DNA of 32,000 nt from Lachnospiraceae bacterium (GTDB lineage: Bacteria; Bacillota; Clostridia; Lachnospirales; Lachnospiraceae): the NCBI GenBank assembly GCA_036652735.1, contig JAVVVI010000014.1:19658-51657 (forward strand). The letters run 5' to 3'. Each line of letters opens with the position of its first letter. The first letter of the stretch is position 1. The notes beneath the pieces are model-generated. The model made no database searches, had not been told where the DNA came from, and worked only from the letters and a program-made list of their open reading frames with translations. The translations under genes were made by a program, and so were the position numbers. Shown in pieces: positions 4,704 through 29,100 of the stretch.

Positions 4704-5396
4704 ATGTATCGAATTTTAATTGTAGAGGACGATAATAACATTGCGGATTCTATCGAACACCAGTTATCAAAATGGGGATGGGAAGTAAAGGCAGTAAAGG
4801 ATTTTCAAAATGTAATGGCAGTTTTTTCCGAGTATGAACCCCAGTTGGTACTGCTGGACATTATGCTCCCCTTTTTTAATGGTTATCATTGGTGTACCCA
4901 GATACGCAAAGAATCAAAAGTACCAATTCTTTTTCTTTCATCCGTGGCAGACAATATGAATATTGTAATGGCAATGAATATGGGTGGAGATGATTTTATT
5001 GTGAAGCCCTTTGACATTCAGGTTTTAACAGCTAAGATTCAGGCAATTCTCAGAAGAACCTATGATTTTTCCGGACAGGCAAATTTAATTGAGCATCAGG
5101 GAGCAGTATTAAATTTAAACCGGCATTCTTTGACATTTCAGGGAGAAAAGATAGATTTAACCAAGAACGAGTTTGGAATTCTACAGCAGCTGATGGAAAA
5201 GAAAGGAACGATTGTATCAAGAGAGGTCATTATGGCGGCATTGTGGGAATCGGATAGTTTTATAGATGAAAATACACTTACGGTGAATATGAATCGTCTG
5301 AGAAAAAAATTAGAAGGTGCAGGTCTGAAGGAATTTATTTTAACAAAAAAAGGAATTGGCTATATGATTGGTTCATCCAGTGGAGGGAACAGATGA
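4704..5396 (+). CDS. OmpR-family response regulator, BceR-like (peptide-antibiotic resistance module)
   Basis: Long collinear similarity to B. subtilis BceR as I recall it: LP.F.G.HWC..IR..S.VPILFLSS, DDFI.KPF, AKIQA..RR, LTKNE, IVSRE, TLTVN.NRLRKKL. The C-terminal tail (..SSSGGNR) carries the GGAGGG RBS of deoB. Confidence 0.85.
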   Translation: MYRILIVEDDNNIADSIEHQLSKWGWEVKAVKDFQNVMAVFSEYEPQLVLLDIMLPFFNGYHWCTQIRKESKVPILFLSSVADNMNIVMAMNMGGDDFIVKPFDIQVLTAKIQAILRRTYDFSGQANLIEHQGAVLNLNRHSLTFQGEKIDLTKNEFGILQQLMEKKGTIVSREVIMAALWESDSFIDENTLTVNMNRLRKKLEGAGLKEFILTKKGIGYMIGSSSGGNR

Positions 5397-9738: not shown

Positions 9739-10728
9739 ATGAAAAAAACTTTATTCTCATATTTAAAGGAAAGAATGAAATTTTATATTTTGTTAGGATG
9801 CTTTCTTTTTATTTTTTTATTTATTTTTTATCTTGCAGAATTAGCATCGCCCATCGTATGGTATGCGTTCTTTTTATGTGGTATTTTATTTCTATTGGCC
9901 TCTCTCCTTGATTTTTATCATTTTTATAAAAAAAGGAACCTGATTAAGGCACTTTCCATCCATCCGGAAATTGCAAGTGACTTGGAATCCTTTCCCGGAA
10001 CCATGTGTGAAAAGGAGTTAATAGCCATCATTGAAGAACAGAGACAGGAGCAAATGAGAATACGTTCCAAAACAGATGCACAGTTTTCGGATATGGTTGA
10101 TTATTATACAATGTGGGCACATCAAATTAAGACACCCATATCCGCCATGCACCTTATGCTTCAGGAAAGTGAGAATGAACAATATCGGGAATTATTGCTG
10201 GAATTAATGAAAATTGATCAATATGTGGATATGGTATTGCAATATTTAAGACTGGATAGTGAAAGCAGTGATTTTGTGTTTCAAACATATTCACTGGATC
10301 AAATTATTTGTACTGCAATTAAAAAATATGCACCTTTATTTATTCGAAAGAAAATAACACTAAAGTACAAGACCATCGATCAAATGATTACAACAGATGA
10401 AAAGTGGTTTCAATTTATTCTAGAACAATTATTATCCAATGCTTTGAAATATACCGCAAAAGGAAGCATTTCCATTCAAATGAAATCTGAAAAATTAGTA
10501 ATTATGGATACCGGAATTGGAATTGCACCGGAAGATATTCCAAGGGTTTTTGACAAAGGATTTACCGGATTCAATGGAAGAATAGGAAAAAAATCTACCG
10601 GTATTGGATTATATTTATGCAAACGGGTATCCCAAAAGCTTGGATGTGAACTCTCAATATACAGTAAAATAGGGGAAGGAACTTCTGTGTCTTTCAGTTT
10701 ACCAAAAGAAAAACCGGAAATTGAGTAG
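9739..10728 (+). CDS. Intramembrane-sensing histidine kinase, BceS-like
   Basis: Two N-terminal TM helices are joined by a loop of about 5 residues (..YLAELASPIVWY..), with no extracellular sensor domain. H-box WAHQIKTPISAM and HATPase motifs DTGIGI / GIGLYLCKRV. Confidence 0.85.
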   Translation: MKKTLFSYLKERMKFYILLGCFLFIFLFIFYLAELASPIVWYAFFLCGILFLLASLLDFYHFYKKRNLIKALSIHPEIASDLESFPGTMCEKELIAIIEEQRQEQMRIRSKTDAQFSDMVDYYTMWAHQIKTPISAMHLMLQESENEQYRELLLELMKIDQYVDMVLQYLRLDSESSDFVFQTYSLDQIICTAIKKYAPLFIRKKITLKYKTIDQMITTDEKWFQFILEQLLSNALKYTAKGSISIQMKSEKLVIMDTGIGIAPEDIPRVFDKGFTGFNGRIGKKSTGIGLYLCKRVSQKLGCELSIYSKIGEGTSVSFSLPKEKPEIE

Positions 10729-10751
10729 CGGTCAGGAGCAATGACTGTATC

Positions 10752-10765
10752 TTACAGTAATGTAA
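10752..10765 (+). promoter_or_regulatory. BceR-type response-regulator binding box upstream of the ABC transporter genes
   Basis: TTACA-GTAA-TGTAA exactly fits the TNACA-N4-TGTAA consensus I recall for BceR-like regulators. An extra TGTAAG half-site lies at 10781..10786. The box sits 53 nt upstream of a TATAAT. Confidence 0.6.
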
Positions 10766-10795
10766 GAATATAGGAGAAAATGTAAGCTGAATCTA

Positions 10796-10824
10796 TGGCA
10801 GCCGTTTTTCTTTTCTTTTATAAT
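10796..10824 (+). promoter_or_regulatory. Activator-dependent promoter of the bceAB-like genes
   Basis: TATAAT at 10819..10824 with only a poor -35 (TGGCAG, 17-nt spacer). This is what I would expect for a regulator-activated promoter. Confidence 0.5.
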
Positions 10825-10855
10825 GGTTAAAGATAAAAGAAAAAGGAGAAAAGAT

Positions 10856-11623
10856 ATGACATTATTAGAAGTAAAAAACCTCAAAAAAATATATACTACA
10901 AGATTTGGTTCCAATCAGGTGCAAGCACTTTCCAATGTTAATTTTACTGTAGAAGAAGGAGAATATGTTGCAATTATGGGGGAAAGTGGCTCCGGTAAGA
11001 CAACGCTTTTAAATATTTTAGCAGCATTGGATAAACCAACCAGTGGTGAGGTCTGTTTAAAAGGAAACAATATGGCAGATATTAAAGATCGGGATATCTC
11101 TTCTTTTCGACGGGAGAATTTAGGATTTGTCTTTCAGGATTTTAATTTATTGGATAATTTTTCCGTAAAAGATAATATTCTGCTTCCACTTGTACTGTCC
11201 GGAATGCATTACAAACAAATGGAACAAAAGTTAGTACCAATTGTTAAAAAACTTGGAATTATGGATCTTTTGGAAAAATTTCCATATGAGATTTCCGGGG
11301 GACAAAAACAACGCGTCGCAGTAGCACGGGCAATTATTACACAGCCACAGCTCATCCTTGCAGATGAGCCAACGGGAGCATTGGACTCCAAAGCAACCGA
11401 TGGATTATTAAATCTTTTTTCCAAGGTGAATGAAGAAGGACAGACGATTTTAATGGTAACACATAGTACAAAGGCAGCAAGTCATGCAAAACGTGTACTG
11501 TTTATCAAAGATGGGGAAGTATTTCATCAGCTTTATCGTGGAAATATGAACAATGAAGAATTATTTGGAAAAATATCAGACACCCTTACGGTATTAATGG
11601 CAGGGGGTGAGGTCAATGAGTAA
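10856..11623 (+). CDS. ABC transporter ATP-binding protein, BceA-like
   Basis: Walker A GESGSGKTT, signature SGGQKQR, Walker B LILADEPTGALD. I set the start at ATG 10856 (MTLLEVKNL), 7 nt after AAGGAG. The track start at 10823 adds a KRKRRK tail with no RBS. Confidence 0.9.
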   Translation: MTLLEVKNLKKIYTTRFGSNQVQALSNVNFTVEEGEYVAIMGESGSGKTTLLNILAALDKPTSGEVCLKGNNMADIKDRDISSFRRENLGFVFQDFNLLDNFSVKDNILLPLVLSGMHYKQMEQKLVPIVKKLGIMDLLEKFPYEISGGQKQRVAVARAIITQPQLILADEPTGALDSKATDGLLNLFSKVNEEGQTILMVTHSTKAASHAKRVLFIKDGEVFHQLYRGNMNNEELFGKISDTLTVLMAGGEVNE

Positions 11624-13622
11624 ATTTTTTTATATAAAACTGTCCATTAGCAATCTTCGTAAAAATGGCAAATTATATTATCCTTATTTGTTAGCGACCA
11701 TAGTTAACGTGGCCATGTTTTATATTATGGTGGCATTAACATCGGATGAGGGCTTAAATACCATACCGGGAGCCACGTCCTTAAAAATGATTATGATGCT
11801 TGGATGTATTGTCATTGCCATTTTTTCAATTATTTTTTTATTTTATATCAATAGTTTTTTAATGAAGCATAGAAAAAAAGAGATGGGACTTTATAATATT
11901 TTAGGCATGGAGAAAAAACATATTGGCAGAATTTTATTTTTCGAAACGCTGGAGACTTCTATTATAGGTATCTTTGGTGGAATTCTGGGTGGATTTGTGT
12001 TCTATGAACTTGTATTATTGATTTTATATCGATTCATGGGTATTCATGCCTCGTTTTCTTTTCAACTGTCCGGAATGGGACTGAACATAACGTTGTTGTT
12101 ATTTTTTGGCATCTTTTTCATAATCTATATTGCAGATTATATACAATTGAAAGTATTAAAGCCCATTGAACTGCTTCATAGTGGATCGATTGGTGAAAAA
12201 GAACCAAGGAGCAAATGGCTCTTGGCATTAATGGGTTTTGTGTGTCTTGGAACCGGTTATTATATCGCAATTACCACAGAATCCCCACTTACAGCCATGG
12301 TTATTTTTTTTATTGCGGTACTGTTAGTGATTGTTGGAACCTACTGTTTGTTCACGGCAGGAAGCATTGTACTATTAAAGCTGCTGCGGAAACATAAATC
12401 GTATTATTATAAAACCAATCATTTTACATCGATCTCAGGTATGCTGTATCGCATGAAGCAAAATGCCGTAGGTCTTGCTAATATTTGTATTCTTTCAACT
12501 ATGGTATTAGTGATGGTGTCCTCTACGGTCAGTTTATATTTGGGAATTCAGGATTGCATGAATTACCGCTATCCATCAGATCTATTTATCGCTTCTTCCG
12601 CGCAGGAGGTAAATTCGGACTTTCATATCGAACTTCTGAATTCCATAAAGAAAACAGTTAAAGAGGAAGGGCGAGAGATCAAACAACTGAAAGAGCATGA
12701 ATATCTTAATTTTGCAGTGATACAAAAGGGCAGAGAATTTATGCTAAACAATGAGGACAATAGTAATGGTATGGCGGATTGTACGGTTTCGTTATGCACA
12801 TTAAATGTATATAACAAATTGACAGGAAAGAAACTGCCGGAATTAAAGAAAGATGAAATCTATCTGGAAACCGTTTCCGAGAAAATGGATCAGATAGTTT
12901 TAGCAGGAAAGCCACTGAAGGTAAAAGAGATGGTAAACTCAGGTCTGATTAAAGGGGAAGATTCCGCCTTTCTTGTTAATATGTATTATATTATTGTTAA
13001 GGATGCAACCGTAATGGAGGAGTTTTTCCAGATTCAAAAACAGGAATATAAGGAGGATGCAGGTGATTATATGTATTCTCTTTCCATGGATATTGATGGA
13101 ACAAAGGAAGAAAAAATTGCCTGTGGAGCAGCCCTTGAAGAGATGAAAGCACAAGAATTGCCAATGGAAAATGGTTATACAATTCGGCGAGTAGAGTGCA
13201 AGGAGAAAGAAGTAGATTCATTTTATGTGATTTTTGGTGGATTTTTATTTCTGGGAATCTTTTTAGGATTCTTATTCTTAGTGGTAACCGCATTGCTCAT
13301 TTATTATAAGCAGATATCCGAGGGATATGACGATAAAGAACGATTTACCATTATGCTGAATGTAGGGATGTCTCAAAAAGAAGTGAAAGCCTGTATACAT
13401 TCCCAAATTATAAAAATATTCTTTCTTCCGGTTCTTGTAGCGGTAATTCATGTTGCAGCAGCATTTCCATTAATAACGAAACTTCTTGGACTACTGCAGC
13501 TGCACAATATAGCATTAACGTTGGGATGTACCATAGCCACAATACTGGTATTTCTTCTTGCATACAGCGTGATGTATCTGGTTACCACAAGAACGTATTA
13601 TAAAATAATTCGACAAAATTAG
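11616..13622 (+). CDS. ABC transporter permease, BceB-like (FtsX-domain, 10 TM with a large extracellular loop)
   Basis: N-terminus MSKFFYIKLSISNLRKN.., two FtsX-type 4-TM blocks, and a soluble loop of about 220 aa between them. ATG 11616 overlaps the bceA-like stop by 8 nt. Confidence 0.88.
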   Translation: MSKFFYIKLSISNLRKNGKLYYPYLLATIVNVAMFYIMVALTSDEGLNTIPGATSLKMIMMLGCIVIAIFSIIFLFYINSFLMKHRKKEMGLYNILGMEKKHIGRILFFETLETSIIGIFGGILGGFVFYELVLLILYRFMGIHASFSFQLSGMGLNITLLLFFGIFFIIYIADYIQLKVLKPIELLHSGSIGEKEPRSKWLLALMGFVCLGTGYYIAITTESPLTAMVIFFIAVLLVIVGTYCLFTAGSIVLLKLLRKHKSYYYKTNHFTSISGMLYRMKQNAVGLANICILSTMVLVMVSSTVSLYLGIQDCMNYRYPSDLFIASSAQEVNSDFHIELLNSIKKTVKEEGREIKQLKEHEYLNFAVIQKGREFMLNNEDNSNGMADCTVSLCTLNVYNKLTGKKLPELKKDEIYLETVSEKMDQIVLAGKPLKVKEMVNSGLIKGEDSAFLVNMYYIIVKDATVMEEFFQIQKQEYKEDAGDYMYSLSMDIDGTKEEKIACGAALEEMKAQELPMENGYTIRRVECKEKEVDSFYVIFGGFLFLGIFLGFLFLVVTALLIYYKQISEGYDDKERFTIMLNVGMSQKEVKACIHSQIIKIFFLPVLVAVIHVAAAFPLITKLLGLLQLHNIALTLGCTIATILVFLLAYSVMYLVTTRTYYKIIRQN

Positions 13623-21068: not shown

Positions 21069-22442
21069 ATGAAAAAATTAGCAAGAATTATTGCGTTCGT
21101 ATTGATTGCAGCTCTATTGATAAAACCTCTTCCCACCTATGCGGAGGTAATGGCAGAATCCATTGTATTGAATTCAATGGATGTAAAAGAAATTACGCTC
21201 TCAGAGCTAATTCCGGAGGGAACAACAGAGGTCTATTGGAATATCGAAAATCAGATACCTGCCAAGGGGGAAGGTGAAGTTGTTCAACTATTAGATTCTG
21301 AGCAGCTTGTGGTGCCGGTACCGGCACTCTATCCCCTTGTTAATGGCGCGAGCAGTGTTACTTTAATGGGAATCAACCCGGGAAGTGCAGAACTTGTTTG
21401 TTATCGTCTAAAGGATGAGATTAAGGAAATAATCAAAACGTATAAAATTACTGTTGAGAATAAGTTTACAAGTATAGAATTTAAACAGAAGTCTTATTCG
21501 TTATATATGGGAGCGACTATGAACTTTGTACCAATTGTAAAGAGCAGCAACCCGTCGGTTCCATTAAGCTATTCCTCGTCAAATTCTAAAATTGCCAGAA
21601 TCGATCAAAATGGGACGATTACCGCATTAAAAAGCGGAGTAGTAACCATTACATGTAAAGCATTGGATGGAAGTGGCGCCATAGGAAAATGCAAATTAAA
21701 AGTACTCAAAGAAAAAAAGGGATGGCATGTTACAAAATCAGGAAAAAAATATTATGTGTATTCTTCCGGATACCGTGCAGCAGGGTATCATAAAATGGGA
21801 GATGCTTATTACTATTTTGATCCGAGCACAAGATATATGGAGAAAAATCAATGGGAATATGTAACCATTCAGGATCAAAAATATAAATTAAGATTTGGAC
21901 CAAAAGGGAAGCAGATGCAGGATGTATCAGAATTAATTGGCAAACAGCCTTCTTATCGTTTAAAGGTAAATACCACAACGAATATGGTTACCGTGTATGC
22001 AAAAGATGGTTCCAATGGATATATTCTTCCGGTTCGTGCAATTCTCTGTTCCACAGGAAAGACGGGAACACCAACCAAGGAGGGGACGTTTACATTGAAA
22101 AAGGTAGCACCTTGGCACACCTTGTTTGGAAATGTGTATGGTCAGTATTGTACCAGAATTACAGAGGGCTACCTGTTCCATTCTGTATTTTATTCCGTGC
22201 TTGGAAATCGGAATACCTTGTTTGTGAATGAATATCGAAAATTAGGTGAGAAAGCATCTCATGGCTGTGTGCGTGTAACGGTAGGAGATGCAAAGTGGAT
22301 TTACGATAACTGTATAGGCAGTAAGGTTACCGTTTATGCCAGTGAAAAAAGAGGACCATTGCTGAAACCAAAGGTACCGCCGGTTATTGTATTGCCCGGT
22401 GGTGGCGGCTGTGATCCCACAGATCCGGAGATTAAGAATTAA
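21069..22442 (+). CDS. L,D-transpeptidase (YkuD domain) with Big_2 and cell-wall-binding repeat domains
   Basis: Signal peptide, a Big_2 Ig-like domain (..IARIDQNGTITALKSGVVTITCKA..), Tyr/Gly-rich wall-binding repeats (GWHVTKSGKKYYVYSSG.., GDAYYYFD), and the C-terminal YkuD catalytic motif HSV....SHGCVRV. Confidence 0.85.
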   Translation: MKKLARIIAFVLIAALLIKPLPTYAEVMAESIVLNSMDVKEITLSELIPEGTTEVYWNIENQIPAKGEGEVVQLLDSEQLVVPVPALYPLVNGASSVTLMGINPGSAELVCYRLKDEIKEIIKTYKITVENKFTSIEFKQKSYSLYMGATMNFVPIVKSSNPSVPLSYSSSNSKIARIDQNGTITALKSGVVTITCKALDGSGAIGKCKLKVLKEKKGWHVTKSGKKYYVYSSGYRAAGYHKMGDAYYYFDPSTRYMEKNQWEYVTIQDQKYKLRFGPKGKQMQDVSELIGKQPSYRLKVNTTTNMVTVYAKDGSNGYILPVRAILCSTGKTGTPTKEGTFTLKKVAPWHTLFGNVYGQYCTRITEGYLFHSVFYSVLGNRNTLFVNEYRKLGEKASHGCVRVTVGDAKWIYDNCIGSKVTVYASEKRGPLLKPKVPPVIVLPGGGGCDPTDPEIKN

Positions 22443-23232
22443 GAGATGCTAAGTAGTTCAGGTAGTGGGTGGAAAGTTTGATGTTCGTATAGGTTTCCGC
22501 ATATTTTTTGGAACTATAATCAGGGATATAATTTATAGAATAATTTTTTTGAATACCGGCAGCCTTTGCAAGATCAACAGCTTTGTTGTATGCAATGGCT
22601 GCTGTTATTTCATCACGATAAGTACCAATCAGATAATTGCCATTAATATGAATTTTTACATTATAAAAAGTGTTTCCTTTTTTAGAGATTTTAGTAACAC
22701 CAAAATAGGAATTCAAAATTTGAATATTAGAATAACGAAAATCCGTAGAATCTCCATTCACAAAGCGGTAGTCTTTATTTTCCACACCGTAATTAAGAAT
22801 ACCATATCTGGAAAGAATGGTTACCTGCATTCCATAATCACTTACAAATAAATGTCCCTGTCTTCGCATGATCTTATGAGATGCATAATAAAAGAGATCA
22901 TCACGATCAAATTTCAGTTCATCCTGTTCGGAAATGAAGTATTGAAAAAAATTACGGCGTAAATAAATAGGGGTTTTAAAATACAAGGCATTGTCCCTAA
23001 AATTAAGTAAGGAAATGATTTTATCATGGGAAAGCTGAAAGGAGAGGGCGGTAAAATTTTCAATGGTAATGGAAGTATCAGATACTATTTTTTTTGCATC
23101 AAAATAAGCTTGCGAAGCTTCTTCTTCTGTGAAAAAACTTCCCAGGCTTATGTGTTTTTGATGATAAGTAATATTGGAACGATAGTATGTGGTTCCATCT
23201 TTTTTCTTTGCTAAATATACTCCGGCTAACAT
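22432..23232 (-). CDS. AP2-domain DNA-binding protein: AP2 / degenerate HNH_3-like core / AP2
   Basis: N-terminal AGVYLAKKKDGTTYYRSNITYHQKHISLGSFFTEEEASQAYFDA and C-terminal FGVTKISKKGNTFYNVKIHINGNYLIGTYRDEITAAIAYNKA both fit the AP2 pattern (GV..y.a.I...gk...LG.f.t.eeAa.AY). The middle TILSRYGILNYGVENKDYRFVNGDSTDFRYSNIQIL aligns to HNH_3 (hRLv..f......V.H.dG...NN...NL), with the catalytic His replaced by Phe. Confidence 0.6.
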   Translation of the reverse strand: MLAGVYLAKKKDGTTYYRSNITYHQKHISLGSFFTEEEASQAYFDAKKIVSDTSITIENFTALSFQLSHDKIISLLNFRDNALYFKTPIYLRRNFFQYFISEQDELKFDRDDLFYYASHKIMRRQGHLFVSDYGMQVTILSRYGILNYGVENKDYRFVNGDSTDFRYSNIQILNSYFGVTKISKKGNTFYNVKIHINGNYLIGTYRDEITAAIAYNKAVDLAKAAGIQKNYSINYIPDYSSKKYAETYTNIKLSTHYLNYLASLNS

Positions 23233-23240
23233 TTTTTTAC

Positions 23241-24122
23241 CTATATAGAAAGAATAAAGTTTACAGTGCCAAAGGAAAATGCAATGGGAAGGAGATAAGT
23301 GCTCGGTCCCGGAGAAAGAATCTCAATGCTGTGCATTTCCGGTGGTGCTAACGATAATTCAGTGGAGTAGGAATTGGACATATTTACATTGAACAGGCCA
23401 TTGTGCAGATTGAGAAAATCTTCCATGGAAGCTTCTACATAATCATCATAGGATTCAAAATTCTCACCAACATATCGGGAGGCAAAGGCAACAGCAGTTG
23501 CAACATCCATATCCAATGCAGAAAACAATGAAAATTCACCATTAATTTCTTGAATTGCACAATGATTGGTACGATATTCCTTTAGCGGAGTAATGGTAAT
23601 GGGGGTATAATCATCCCCAATAAACCGAATGAAATTATTAAATAATAATTGTAGATAGGCAACTATTTTATCTGCATTCTCTAAATCACCAAATTCACAG
23701 AATTTGCAAATCAGTTGATTAATAGAATCAAACTGGTCATTTCCATTGCTCAGATCATAAATCTCATTTTCTGTCTGATAATCCGAGAGCAGTTTTTGAA
23801 ACGCTTCATGGGATAGAATCTTTTCTTCCACAAGAATCTGACCCAGTAAAAGATAGTCGGGAGTCTGGCTTGCTAATAATTCAGATACCTGTTCAGCGGT
23901 GAGATATCCTTCTTCAATTGCAAGTTCACCAAACTTTTGATCCTGATGTGTTTGAAGTACAATAATACGATCAACCATACTGGCAGACATAAGACCCGCA
24001 TGTATTGCAAGTGTTCCCAGCTTAATGTGGGTATCGGACTGCTTTTTAAGTGCATTTACCAGTTGAGAAGTTGTAAGAACTCCTTTACTTAATAAGAAAT
24101 TGCCAAATAATTGAGTAAACAT
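23241..24122 (-). CDS. Hypothetical signalling protein: four tandem MshEN/T2SSE_N-like 29-aa repeats plus a CheX/CheC-like C-terminal domain
   Basis: Residues 5-116 form four repeats with an exact 29-aa period (Gly at positions 7, 36, 65 and 94). Each fits x-[LF]-G-xx-hh-xx-[GK]-hh-xxxx-h-xxx-h-xx-Q. The C-terminal half contains ..ATAVAFASRYVG.. and DFLNLHNG, comparable to the CheX E-xx-N-xxx-G motif. The GGGAGA RBS lies inside the end of the upstream receiver gene. Confidence 0.5.
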   Translation of the reverse strand: MFTQLFGNFLLSKGVLTTSQLVNALKKQSDTHIKLGTLAIHAGLMSASMVDRIIVLQTHQDQKFGELAIEEGYLTAEQVSELLASQTPDYLLLGQILVEEKILSHEAFQKLLSDYQTENEIYDLSNGNDQFDSINQLICKFCEFGDLENADKIVAYLQLLFNNFIRFIGDDYTPITITPLKEYRTNHCAIQEINGEFSLFSALDMDVATAVAFASRYVGENFESYDDYVEASMEDFLNLHNGLFNVNMSNSYSTELSLAPPEMHSIEILSPGPSTYLLPIAFSFGTVNFILSI

Positions 24123-24125
24123 GAA

Positions 24126-24503
24126 TTATCTCCCTTCGATTCTTGCATTAACAATTGCTTCTATCTGAGAAATGCTAAAAGGTTTCTGAACAAAATCCTT
24201 TGCACCTGATTCAATTGCGGATTTTAATTGTGATTTGGTACCGACAGAAGAAAGCATTACAATATAGGCAGTTGGGTCAAATTCAAAAATTTGTTTTATA
24301 ACAGCAATGCCATCTAATTTTGGCATTACAATATCTAAGAAAACAAGGTCAGGTTGGTGTTCTTTAAACAGTTCAACGGCACGCTGGCCATTATCAGCTT
24401 CAAAAAATATAGTACACCCCAAAGAAACAAGAACATCATGTATTTGTTTACGCGCTAAAATGGAGTCGTCACTAATTAAAACTTTCATTTCATTTAAGTT
24501 CAT
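24126..24503 (-). CDS. Single-domain CheY-like response regulator (receiver only)
   Basis: Intact receiver signature: DD (LISDDS), a phospho-acceptor Asp in LVFLDIVMP (position 57 counted from ATG 24503), MLSSVG, and Lys in VQKPF. ATG 24503 sits 6 nt after AGGAGG. The track's ATG at 24509 abuts the RBS. Confidence 0.85.
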   Translation of the reverse strand: MNLNEMKVLISDDSILARKQIHDVLVSLGCTIFFEADNGQRAVELFKEHQPDLVFLDIVMPKLDGIAVIKQIFEFDPTAYIVMLSSVGTKSQLKSAIESGAKDFVQKPFSISQIEAIVNARIEGR

Positions 24504-24549
24504 ATACATCCTCCTTATTTACAGTCAAAAGATGACAATAGTATATATT

Positions 24550-24578
24550 ATAGTACACCTTTTTCAGAGAAGATTCAA
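24550..24578 (-). promoter_or_regulatory. Candidate sigma-A promoter of the receiver / MshEN-CheX / AP2 operon
   Basis: On the - strand, TTGAAT (24573..24578), a 17-nt spacer, then TACTAT (24550..24555, embedded in TACTATAAT), about 45 nt upstream of ATG 24503. Confidence 0.45.
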
Positions 24579-24677: not shown

Positions 24678-25022
24678 ATGACATTATATGTATTGCTTCA
24701 CATTGTTGTTATATTTTTAGGAGGTTACACTGTGTTCTCCGCAATTAACATGAAAAAAGGGAAACTGGCAAAATGGCTGACAAAGGGTGTTACGCTTACA
24801 CCGGAAAGTGACATACAGGGATTTGGAAAAAAGATGTTTGGAATGACGATCTATATTGGTATTATTGTAATTCTGTATGGCGTATTTGGAATTTTAACGA
24901 ACATCTTCCTTAAAAATTTCCAAATGTCATCGGTAATTACCGTATGTTTTGTTATTCTTGGATTAGCTTATATGGTAGTTCTTTCTTCTGCAAAGAGAAA
25001 ATATTTGCAGCTTTTAGGATAA
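24678..25022 (+). CDS. Small hypothetical membrane protein (3 predicted TM helices)
   Basis: A 114-aa ORF with three hydrophobic helices, AGGATAGGA upstream, its own promoter and a strong terminator. I recognise no family. Confidence 0.55.
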   Translation: MTLYVLLHIVVIFLGGYTVFSAINMKKGKLAKWLTKGVTLTPESDIQGFGKKMFGMTIYIGIIVILYGVFGILTNIFLKNFQMSSVITVCFVILGLAYMVVLSSAKRKYLQLLG

Positions 25023-28911: not shown

Positions 28912-29100
28912 AGAAAAAGAATTCCTGGGATGTTCGAGCACCTACTATTTTGAACCTACGTCTATTTTTATGGGAGTCCTAAATTGCTCATTGGATGTCA
29001 AGCCGTAGTAACTGGCGGAAGGCAGAAGATAAAGCTGCGGATACCCACCTAGCTTTGCTAGGAGTCAAAATTGTTAGGAACGGCATTTTGGGTTTTCAAA
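28912..29100 (+). ncRNA. ssrS: Candidate 6S RNA (SsrS-like structured RNA of about 190 nt)
   Basis: There is no credible ORF or RBS here. The 5' and 3' segments pair into a long interrupted rod: 28924..28932 CCTGGGATG with 29084..29092 CATTTTGGG; 28941..28953 with 29065..29078; and 28971..28979 TGGGAGTCC with 29039..29047 GGATACCCA. Internal loops separate these helices. The 5' GAUGUUCG (28929..28936) and 3' CGGCAU (29081..29086) resemble the E. coli 6S termini as I recall them. The ends given are approximate. Confidence 0.55.

Follow-up and report, generated by a model that had tools for sequence, protein, structure and literature searches.

Cyclic di-GMP (c-di-GMP) reaches chemotaxis through separate PilZ proteins, namely YcgR-type brakes, MapZ acting on CheR, and PlzC/PlzD acting on CheX. 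In the locus analyzed here, a probable c-di-GMP receptor module of the MshEN type is instead fused to a CheX-type phosphatase domain. The locus lies in an uncultured Lachnospiraceae metagenome-assembled genome (MAG; assembly GCA_036652735.1, contig JAVVVI010000014.1, positions 19,658 to 51,657 of the forward strand; this whole stretch of 32,000 nt is hereafter called the window) and comprises three packed genes, for a CheY-family receiver (g1), the MshEN-CheX protein (g2), and an AP2-domain protein (g3). Taken as a whole, our results favor, with a probability of roughly 55%, a picture in which g2 is a c-di-GMP-gated phosphatase of phosphorylated CheY (CheY-P) encoded with its own CheY, and g3 is an independent neighbor that became joined to them secondarily.

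The closest described counterpart of g2 is the (MshEN_N)2-CheX architecture, for which Supplementary Table 4 of Wang et al. 2016 (Nat Commun 7:12481) gives the example Geobacter lovleyi Glov_2742 and a range of 'Deltaproteobacteria, Firmicutes'; CheX is also named in the text of that paper among the MshEN partners. Like g2, proteins of this architecture carry CheX behind two MshEN_N units (four 24-residue motifs in all), and they were predicted to bring c-di-GMP into chemotaxis. The entry is a table line, and the likeness to Glov_2742 is one of architecture; the CheY pairing and the pattern of motifs 2 and 3 are added here. g2 belongs to this catalogued family. New here are its obligate pairing with CheY, the difference between its central and outer motifs, and the evolutionary history of its junction with g3. 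A preliminary description of the window, made from the sequence alone, had known of no characterized system of this kind, which holds for the three genes together and for experiments in the literature searched, whereas (MshEN_N)2-CheX had been listed in 2016 and the NCBI annotation pipeline PGAP names g2 CheX.

Described proteins also resemble each half of g2. CheX of T. maritima (1SQU/1XKO) and CheX-CheY3 of B. burgdorferi (3HZH) share their fold with the C-terminal 145 residues of g2; the ExxN motif and downstream Pro of 3HZH align with g2, and the neighboring g1 is related to CheY3. Canonical CheX is, however, a single domain of ~150 aa with no sensor, whereas g2 adds a 145-aa N-terminal sensor and linker, identity between them is 12–16%, and the window's clade has Asp in place of Glu. 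V. cholerae MshE (5HTL) and T. thermophilus PilF GSPII-B (8PDK) show the same 24-residue motifs and 5-residue spacers as g2, which differs in having no secretion or pilus ATPase attached and in its four consecutive motifs, of which the first and the last lack the basic residue. The Vibrio PilZ effectors PlzC (V. cholerae; PMC12799141) and PlzD, with suppressors in cheX (V. vulnificus; PMC12887009), are similar to g2 in that c-di-GMP signaling converges on a CheX-type CheY-P phosphatase and tunes motility. In Vibrio, however, a distinct PilZ protein receives c-di-GMP, and its connection to the phosphatase is genetic or in trans, whereas g2 joins receptor module and phosphatase in one polypeptide.

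The main features of the locus, in window coordinates, are as follows.
24126..24503, minus strand: g1, stand-alone CheY-family receiver, 125 aa from the second ATG (the open reading frame (ORF) listing extends to 24509)
23241..24122, minus strand: g2, four MshEN-type repeats and a CheX phosphatase domain, 293 aa
23865..24023, minus strand: central motif pair of g2 (residues 34–86), K34-L-G...Q57, spacer THQDQ, K63-F-G...Q86; candidate c-di-GMP site
23409..23420, minus strand: D235-F-L-N238 of g2, equivalent of the CheX/CheC ExxN catalytic motif, with Pro261 22 residues downstream
24550..24578, minus strand: sigma-A-type promoter of g1-g2, TTGAAT (24578-24573), 17 nt, TACTAT (24555-24550)
22432..23232, minus strand: g3, AP2, degenerate HNH_3-like core, and AP2, 266 aa; conserved Lachnospiraceae protein

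The packing of these genes on the minus strand was confirmed, with gaps of 3 nt between g1 and g2 and 8 nt between g2 and g3, and the downstream ribosome-binding sites (RBSs) lie at the preceding stop codons as first described: GGGAG stands just before the g1 stop, and AGG overlaps the g2 stop, 7–8 nt before the g3 ATG. NCBI names g1 'response regulator' and g2 'chemotaxis protein CheX'; g3 and the divergent gene g4, described below, are both 'hypothetical'.

Synteny analysis revealed that the conserved element is the pair g1-g2. Scanning one genome per species yielded 80 loci encoding g2 relatives, 79 of them with upstream sequence, and a g1 homolog lay immediately upstream of the g2 homolog in all 79. 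At six more distant loci, a receiver gene was again found upstream of g2 (6/6), with gaps of 0–8 nt or overlaps. Three distant loci were located outside the Lachnospiraceae, in Calidifontibacillus oryziterrae (Bacilli), Paludicola sp. (Oscillospirales), and a Clostridia MAG; the pair stood among glycogen (glg) genes in C. oryziterrae and with secA in the Clostridia MAG, and g3 was absent beside it at all three loci. Because the pair occurs in unrelated contexts without g3, the conserved unit is g1-g2, a portable and tightly spaced two-gene unit. The g2 family comprised more than 130 clusters (50% identity) at E ≤ 1e-30, and the listed full-length representatives keep a layout of 290–300 aa down to ~27–30% identity. 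Given this strictly conserved, tight unit, a nucleotide-gated CheX-like protein acting on the adjacent receiver, as proposed in the preliminary description, is the natural reading of the pair.

One locus in the genome set, L021 (JBQKHF010000019.1, 'Thermoguttaceae bacterium LCP21S3_D1'), bears a planctomycete label and has a typical Lachnospiraceae layout with citrate synthase, the receiver gene, and a g2 56% identical to that of the window; it is probably a contamination or a mislabeled assembly.

By sequence comparison, g1 is a CheY-type single-domain receiver, nearer to chemotaxis CheY than to other receivers. It matched PF00072 (Response_reg) with E = 1.4e-26 and 93.3 bits (cut-off 30.2), and all six phosphorylation residues (D14, D15, D59, S87, F106, and K109) are intact, in agreement with its earlier description as a receiver-only protein. 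The top nine PDB matches were all CheY, at 77.7–95.5 bits and eight of them at 87 bits or more; they included B. burgdorferi CheY3, a CheX substrate, at 77.7 bits, and the best natural non-CheY response regulator among PDB sequences scored ~65 bits. The NCBIfam equivalog model CheY_Halo gave 97.9 bits, under its cut-off of 200, so that g1 is no equivalog of that model. The start of g1 is better placed at 24503, with AGGAGG (24515-24510) abutting the first ATG and lying 6 nt from the second; NCBI entry MEG0805002.1 is the same 125-aa protein.

The promoter proposed for the pair at 24550..24578 scored 8/12 against the consensus and was unlisted by the promoter scan. Weak when taken alone, it is supported by the conservation of the element in related loci: TTGAAA-17-TAnAAT precedes the receiver gene at a corresponding position in 72 of 86, compared with 6.9 in shuffles, and the median distance from the -10 element to the start codon was 38 nt. 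Rfam searches of the window and nine related loci identified no riboswitch or other RNA element tied to g1-g2 or g3, the hits elsewhere being 6S RNA and T-boxes only.

Four motifs of 24 aa, which start at residues 5, 34, 63, and 92, make up the N-terminal 115 residues of g2; a 5-aa spacer after each gives a period of 29 aa. Two stretches matched NCBIfam NF053729 ('cyclic di-GMP-binding domain, MshE-related'), with 67.9 bits against a cut-off of 38. Motifs 2 (residues 34–57) and 3 (63–86) satisfied the relaxed MshEN motif of Wang et al. 2016, [RKPN]hGxxhhxx[GAS]hhxxxxhxxxhxx[Q...] in two copies with a 5-residue spacer; motifs 1 (5–28) and 4 (92–115) failed it at position 1, and motif 4 of the window also failed at Gly10. 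The four 29-aa repeats reported earlier are thus real, but residues of the c-di-GMP-binding type are present in repeats 2 and 3 only. Among 40 family members with 27–54% identity, K/R occupied position 1 of motifs 2 and 3 in 32 and 30 members, respectively, and Gln occupied position 24 in 35 members each; K/R-h-G, Gly10, and Gln24 of both motifs were conserved over this range, and K63 of the window corresponds to Arg in most homologs.

Structural comparison gave a concordant result. In the family profile, g2 residues 32–86 aligned to residues 7–61 of V. cholerae MshE, its c-di-GMP site. In the AlphaFold model, which had a predicted local distance difference test score (pLDDT) of 76.5 overall, a 54-residue N-terminal stretch superposed in Foldseek on c-di-GMP-bound MshE and PilF with a root-mean-square deviation of 0.8–1.0 Å. 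The models and profiles suggest that the N-terminal repeats are probably a c-di-GMP sensor of the MshEN type, in which repeats 2 and 3 would form the binding site. Pfam matches of g2 to FumaraseC_C, DUF4388, and EpsG/NfrB were rejected as separate domains; they reflect the same helical MshEN-like motif.

The C-terminal half of g2 showed a clear CheX fold. Foldseek matched it to CheX structures 1squ, 1xko, and 3hzh_B with template modeling (TM) scores of 0.75–0.82 and E values of about 1e-8 to 1e-9, and the 13 CheX/CheC-like chains retrieved had E values of 1e-9 to 1e-7 and target-normalized TM scores of 0.68–0.82; pLDDT was 80–94 over residues 180–293. The structure prediction and Foldseek comparison that had been proposed for g2 returned MshE/PilF N-terminally and CheX C-terminally. 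The ExxN catalytic motif of the CheX/CheC family has been described (PMC12799141), and in the C-terminal profile the 'EeFLN' of the g2 family aligned to 'TEVGN' (E-V-G-N) of B. burgdorferi CheX 3hzh_B. Among the 40 distant members, position 235 was D/E in 38 and N238 was kept in 38. In the family, F236, N241, and G242 were near-invariant, as were the acidic residue and Asn238, and P261 was kept in 27 of 27 close and 21 of 40 distant members. Several g2 homologs carry a precomputed PF13690 match. Modeled in this way, the C-terminal half is a CheX fold with a preserved [D/E]xxN motif and a predicted CheY-P phosphatase, which bears out the CheX/CheC likeness noted in the preliminary description.

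Other roles for g2 have to be weighed, in which the repeats serve dimerization, localization, partner binding, or another ligand and not c-di-GMP sensing, or in which the CheX domain is a non-catalytic binder or sequesterer of CheY-P. Several findings tell against a gated phosphatase and for such roles. The first residue of repeats 1 and 4 was hydrophobic and never basic among the 40 members. Position 21 of motif 2 (window residue 54), which is hydrophobic in canonical MshEN, appeared by eye to be His ('VHxxQ') in many distant members; the relaxed motif was passed at motif 2 by 4 of 40 members, and the window's clade has Ile at this position. On account of these outer repeats and the His of the broad family, the c-di-GMP affinity and specificity of g2 are uncertain. 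XpsE provides a precedent as an MshEN homolog that lost c-di-GMP binding (PMC5013675). On the phosphatase side, Pfam CheX PF13690 scored 24.1 bits, under its gathering score of 27, the Asp of the window's clade at the catalytic acidic position deviates, if conservatively, from Glu, and CheC-fold relatives such as FliM, which gave weaker Foldseek matches, are non-catalytic. No experimental work on MshEN-CheX fusions was found in the literature searched. However, the conservation of K/R-h-G, Gly10, and Gln24 in motifs 2 and 3, the close superposition on c-di-GMP-bound MshE and PilF, and the NCBIfam match above cut-off speak for a sensor, and the near-invariance of the acidic residue, Asn238, F236, N241, and G242 argues for a preserved active site. 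We therefore consider a non-sensing or non-catalytic g2 doubtful, although it deserves some weight. The His at motif 2 position 21 may reflect a ligand pocket altered in this family.

From the folds, motifs, synteny, and promoter conservation, we infer the following scheme for a c-di-GMP-gated phosphatase. An unlinked kinase, for which CheA is the most plausible candidate, would phosphorylate g1, and g2 would dephosphorylate phosphorylated g1 (g1-P) through D235 and N238, as its fold, its motif, and the CheX-CheY3 precedent suggest. Binding of c-di-GMP at motifs 2 and 3 would raise or lower the phosphatase activity, so that the cellular c-di-GMP level would set the rate of CheY-P dephosphorylation and hence the CheY output. 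This output would be the target of g1-P, probably the flagellar switch or motility behavior.

A cognate kinase in cis was sought and rejected: none is conserved beside g1-g2, and the two histidine kinase genes of the window are far away, the first adjoining an OmpR-type regulator and the second adjoining ATP-binding cassette (ABC) transporter genes.

The pair might also be c-di-GMP-responsive but act outside chemotaxis, its CheY paralog controlling a non-flagellar output such as type IV pili, biofilm formation, or development. Domain scans of the window ORFs of at least 100 aa found no che, flagellar, GGDEF, or EAL domains, in agreement with the preliminary description, which had seen no cheA/cheW/MCP (methyl-accepting chemotaxis protein), flagellar, GGDEF, or EAL gene; the motility link is one of homology. 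No che/fla gene stood beside the pair at the examined loci, except for an MCP gene 6 kb away in one of them (L166). The promoter is of the sigma-A type, and a sigma-D-type promoter was found upstream of the receiver gene in 0 of 86 loci. These absences count against a motility output, and MshEN domains are typically found in the ATPases of pili and secretion systems. On the other hand, g1 is nearest to bona fide chemotaxis CheY, by ~20 bits or more over other receivers (best non-CheY score as above). The named hosts of the pair include Roseburia, Agathobacter, and Pseudobutyrivibrio, which are flagellated genera. Characterized CheX proteins, moreover, all act in chemotaxis (PMC12799141). A non-flagellar output accordingly seems unlikely to us, and motility remains the probable output of the predicted phosphatase.

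The third gene required a separate analysis, since the preliminary description had treated the three genes as one candidate module. The junction and the position of g3 relative to g2 across the 80 genome loci were as follows.
23233..23240, minus strand: g2-g3 junction of the window, 8 nt; terminator prediction for the window gives none here
52 of 80 loci: g3 on the same strand, 1.7–3.7 kb downstream of g2, with opposite-strand thrC between them (sometimes with a cell-wall hydrolase gene in addition)
12 of 80 loci: g3 adjacent to g2, at 7–74 nt
7 of 80 loci (Lachnospiraceae): no g3 within 6 kb downstream of g2
9 of 80 loci: downstream flank of g2 too short to judge

g3 was seen only at Lachnospiraceae loci. 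Of 80 g3-centered metagenome loci, 42 extended far enough upstream to be judged; the pair was located upstream of g3 in 39 of these, with thrC between in 39 of 39, and three metagenome loci carried g3 without the pair. A tight g2-g3 junction occurred in 2 of ~77 loci in which both genes or sufficient flank were present. The neighborhood comparison across Clostridia suggested in the preliminary description thus shows that the pair and g3 each occur alone, and a conserved three-gene module was not supported: g3 is absent by the pair outside the Lachnospiraceae, thrC lies between in 52 of the 64 genome loci with both, and a terminator separates the genes in 10 of the 12 adjacent ones.

To place the junction in the history of the family, we compared gene order with a concatenated g1+g2 tree. 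All adjacent cases, including the window, formed one clade with metG downstream, and the separated cases, with leuDC downstream, formed its sister clade; in the adjacent clade, thrC has been lost and the downstream flank is metG instead of leuDC. This neighbor-joining, midpoint-rooted tree cannot by itself decide between adjacent and separated ancestry. The more distant Pseudobutyrivibrio and Bovifimicola show the separated state, and Anaerobium has thrC and no g3. By parsimony, based on sequence distance and the midpoint-rooted tree and not on a rooted phylogeny, the separated g2-thrC-g3 state is ancestral.

Within the adjacent clade, the g2-g3 spacer of 10 of 12 genomes measures 58–74 nt and contains a GC-rich hairpin with a T-run behind it, and the hairpin is missing only in the window (8 nt) and in L062 (7 nt). 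The compact junction of the window is a derived, lineage-specific state reached in two steps, thrC being lost first and the terminator afterwards. In the favored reading, g3 would ancestrally have been nearby and independently transcribed; in the window's clade a rearrangement would have removed thrC and put g3 behind g2, and in the window the intervening terminator would also have been lost, leaving the compact three-gene arrangement. In the separated clade, promoter-like elements were seen by eye upstream of g3, many with an extended -10, and a simple regular expression matched there in only 12 of 54 loci against 4.7 in shuffles.

The loci with the hairpin (L004, L007, L012, L026, L028-L030, L038, L055, L058, and L080) have the T-run followed by the g3 RBS within a few bases, and the hairpin could be a leaky or regulated terminator setting g3 expression from the CheY-CheX promoter. 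At most separated loci, g3 is divergent from thrC (or from the Hydrolase_2 cell-wall hydrolase gene) over a shared intergenic region of 170–500 nt, for example at 8456-8668 in L027 and 10458-10631 in L168; this is a classic regulator-target layout, with leuDC convergent on the other side.

These data bear on whether the three genes might nevertheless act together, the c-di-GMP-gated CheX setting CheY-P lifetime and g3 serving as the DNA-binding output or partner of the output-less receiver. In favor of this, and against the independence of g3, g3 lies on the same strand within 4 kb downstream of g2 in 64 of 64 genome loci with both, and g2 lies upstream in nearly all judgeable g3-centered loci; g3 also stayed by the pair through a rearrangement that altered both of its flanks, with thrC lost and leuDC replaced by metG. 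The window and L062 are packed at 3 and 7–8 nt with no terminator. In the rest of the adjacent clade, the hairpin stands directly before the g3 RBS and leaves no space for a promoter, so that g3 is probably expressed there by read-through of transcription of the pair. This is the one finding that still sustains a functional link. Several findings oppose such a module. The pair occurs without g3 in Bacilli, Oscillospirales, Anaerobium, and the seven Lachnospiraceae loci with a 6-kb flank, and g3 occurs without the pair in three loci. The ancestral order has an opposite-strand gene between g2 and g3, with promoter-like sequence of its own before g3, and we know of no precedent for an AP2 protein as a CheY target. 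Furthermore, citrate synthase, thrC, leuD, PEPCK (the phosphoenolpyruvate carboxykinase gene), 6S RNA, and the SpoIID/BrkB neighbors are conserved about as well as g3; since these housekeeping neighbors are equally conserved, the proximity of g3 to the pair is expected from a stable chromosomal backbone. One module of three genes is therefore improbable, although the data leave room for a functional link of g3 to the pair.

A variant of this idea confines the link to the derived lineage: loss of thrC and then of the terminator would have put a domesticated AP2/dead-HNH protein under the pair's promoter and made it a real partner, with a c-di-GMP-tuned CheY signal read out on DNA. The read-through expected in the adjacent clade and the two terminator-free junctions are compatible with it; we regard it as quite improbable. 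An independent g3 that was secondarily joined remains the favored reading.

The g3 protein itself was characterized at the family and structure levels. Pfam gave no match on the window's g3, AP2 PF00847 and HNH_3 included. Sub-threshold AP2 matches were found in 18 of 28 family members (best E = 1e-5), and ten rescanned homologs reached at most 18 bits against the PF00847 gathering score of 33.3. The family profile matched the AP2 domain of WRI1 in the PDB with E = 8.5e-5. The model (pLDDT 82) contains beta-beta-beta-alpha units at residues 5–51 and 179–224 with pLDDT ~90, and the AP2 domains extend over residues ~1–52 and ~175–225; Foldseek matched the AP2 domains of TEM1 and WRI1 with probability 1.0. 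HNH_3 matched weakly, in 3 of 28 members at 12.6–15 bits (gathering threshold 24.8) over residues ~157–175, and model confidence in the core was low (pLDDT 45–67). An invariant Phe157 occupies the presumed position of the catalytic His, as placed by hand alignment within the weak core match, so that the core may have lost this residue. These results are consistent with the earlier assignment of g3 as AP2, dead HNH, and AP2, with AP2 apparent at the family and structure levels and HNH_3 weak. Overall, the profile searches that had been proposed were positive for g1, for the g2 repeat model, and for AP2 at the family level, whereas Pfam CheX on g2 and AP2 and HNH_3 on g3 stayed below threshold.

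Comparison with viral proteins pointed to the probable source of g3. Its best matches among the BFVD viral structures were AP2-carrying HNH endonucleases, and phrog_99 ('HNH endonuclease') of PHROG matched g3 through the AP2 part with E = 5e-9. AP2-domain HNH homing endonucleases found in giant viruses and phages (PHROG 99; BFVD A0A7D3QV96) share the AP2 module with g3 (model alignment probability 1.0), but g3 differs from them in that no intact HNH motif was detected and no close phage relatives were found, and it looks domesticated and not mobile. It is single-copy, holds a fixed chromosomal position, and is ~55–66% identical across the Lachnospiraceae. g3 is most likely a DNA-binding protein derived from an AP2/HNH homing endonuclease, domesticated and independent of the pair.

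Two other candidates for g3 were rejected. A PDB sequence search gave no HNH structure, with AP2 (WRI1) alone significant and matches to de novo TIM barrels spurious. A phage origin was considered and set aside, as the matches were three unannotated human-faecal 'Bacteriophage sp.' records of 6.7–8.5 kb (MT837267.1, MT836856.1, and MT837534.1) that look like bacterial DNA. Two of these encode full-length g3 homologs (56–58% identity), the third only 31 residues of one; all three probably derive from bacterial chromosomes sequenced in a virome data set and not from phages.

On the other side of the pair, a fourth gene diverges from g1.
24678..25022, plus strand: g4, small protein with three hydrophobic, presumably transmembrane, segments, divergent from g1

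g4 had no significant Pfam match. Genes resembling it (24–38% identity) are divergent from the receiver gene at many Lachnospiraceae loci, the homology being weak and the position kept. No comparable divergent gene was called at the Calidifontibacillus and Clostridia-MAG loci, and at the Paludicola locus the same position holds only a 50-aa opposite-strand gene whose similarity to g4 was undetectable.

The surroundings of the locus are those of a conserved chromosomal region. The neighbors in the window are metG, L,D-transpeptidase, citrate synthase, cdd, PEPCK, SpoIID, BrkB, and transporter genes, and the order 6S RNA, PEPCK, citrate synthase, small transmembrane protein, and then g1-g2 forms a backbone across the Lachnospiraceae. 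The preliminary description had taken the A/T-richness of the three-gene block as a hint of acquisition. The A/T-richness is real though small, the GC content of the block being 0.343 against 0.377 for the window and within the lowest 4% of equal-size windows, but another region of the window is lower still (0.335), and the family-wide synteny speaks against recent acquisition; horizontal acquisition by base composition was therefore rejected.

Several further observations were made in the window. The 6S RNA (RF00013, 72.3 bits) is located at 28919-29098 (plus strand), just downstream of the PEPCK gene, and recurs in the same neighborhood in six related loci, as expected of a stable chromosomal backbone. 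The plus-strand L,D-transpeptidase gene at 21069-22442 converges on g3, their 3' ends overlapping by 11 nt (22432-22442), and a terminator was predicted for neither. The window also encodes three OmpR/histidine-kinase-type signaling proteins. At 9739-13622 (plus strand), the genes for a histidine kinase (HATPase_c only), an ABC ATPase, and a large FtsX-type permease follow one another, with an OmpR-type regulator gene at 4704-5396 (plus strand) ~4 kb upstream of this row; the arrangement resembles Bce-type modules for peptide sensing and detoxification.

In conclusion, the three-gene signaling-to-transcription module suggested by the window is mostly an accident of local gene order, and g3 is a separate curiosity, a protein of the homing-endonuclease AP2 type that has apparently been domesticated as a conserved chromosomal gene. 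With g1 and g2, two small soluble proteins make the c-di-GMP question directly testable. If the favored reading is true, a phosphatase that senses c-di-GMP itself and is encoded beside its own CheY would connect c-di-GMP to chemotaxis in the most direct way. Many gut Lachnospiraceae, among them Roseburia, Agathobacter, and Pseudobutyrivibrio, carry the pair, and their motility and flagellins matter for interaction with the host.

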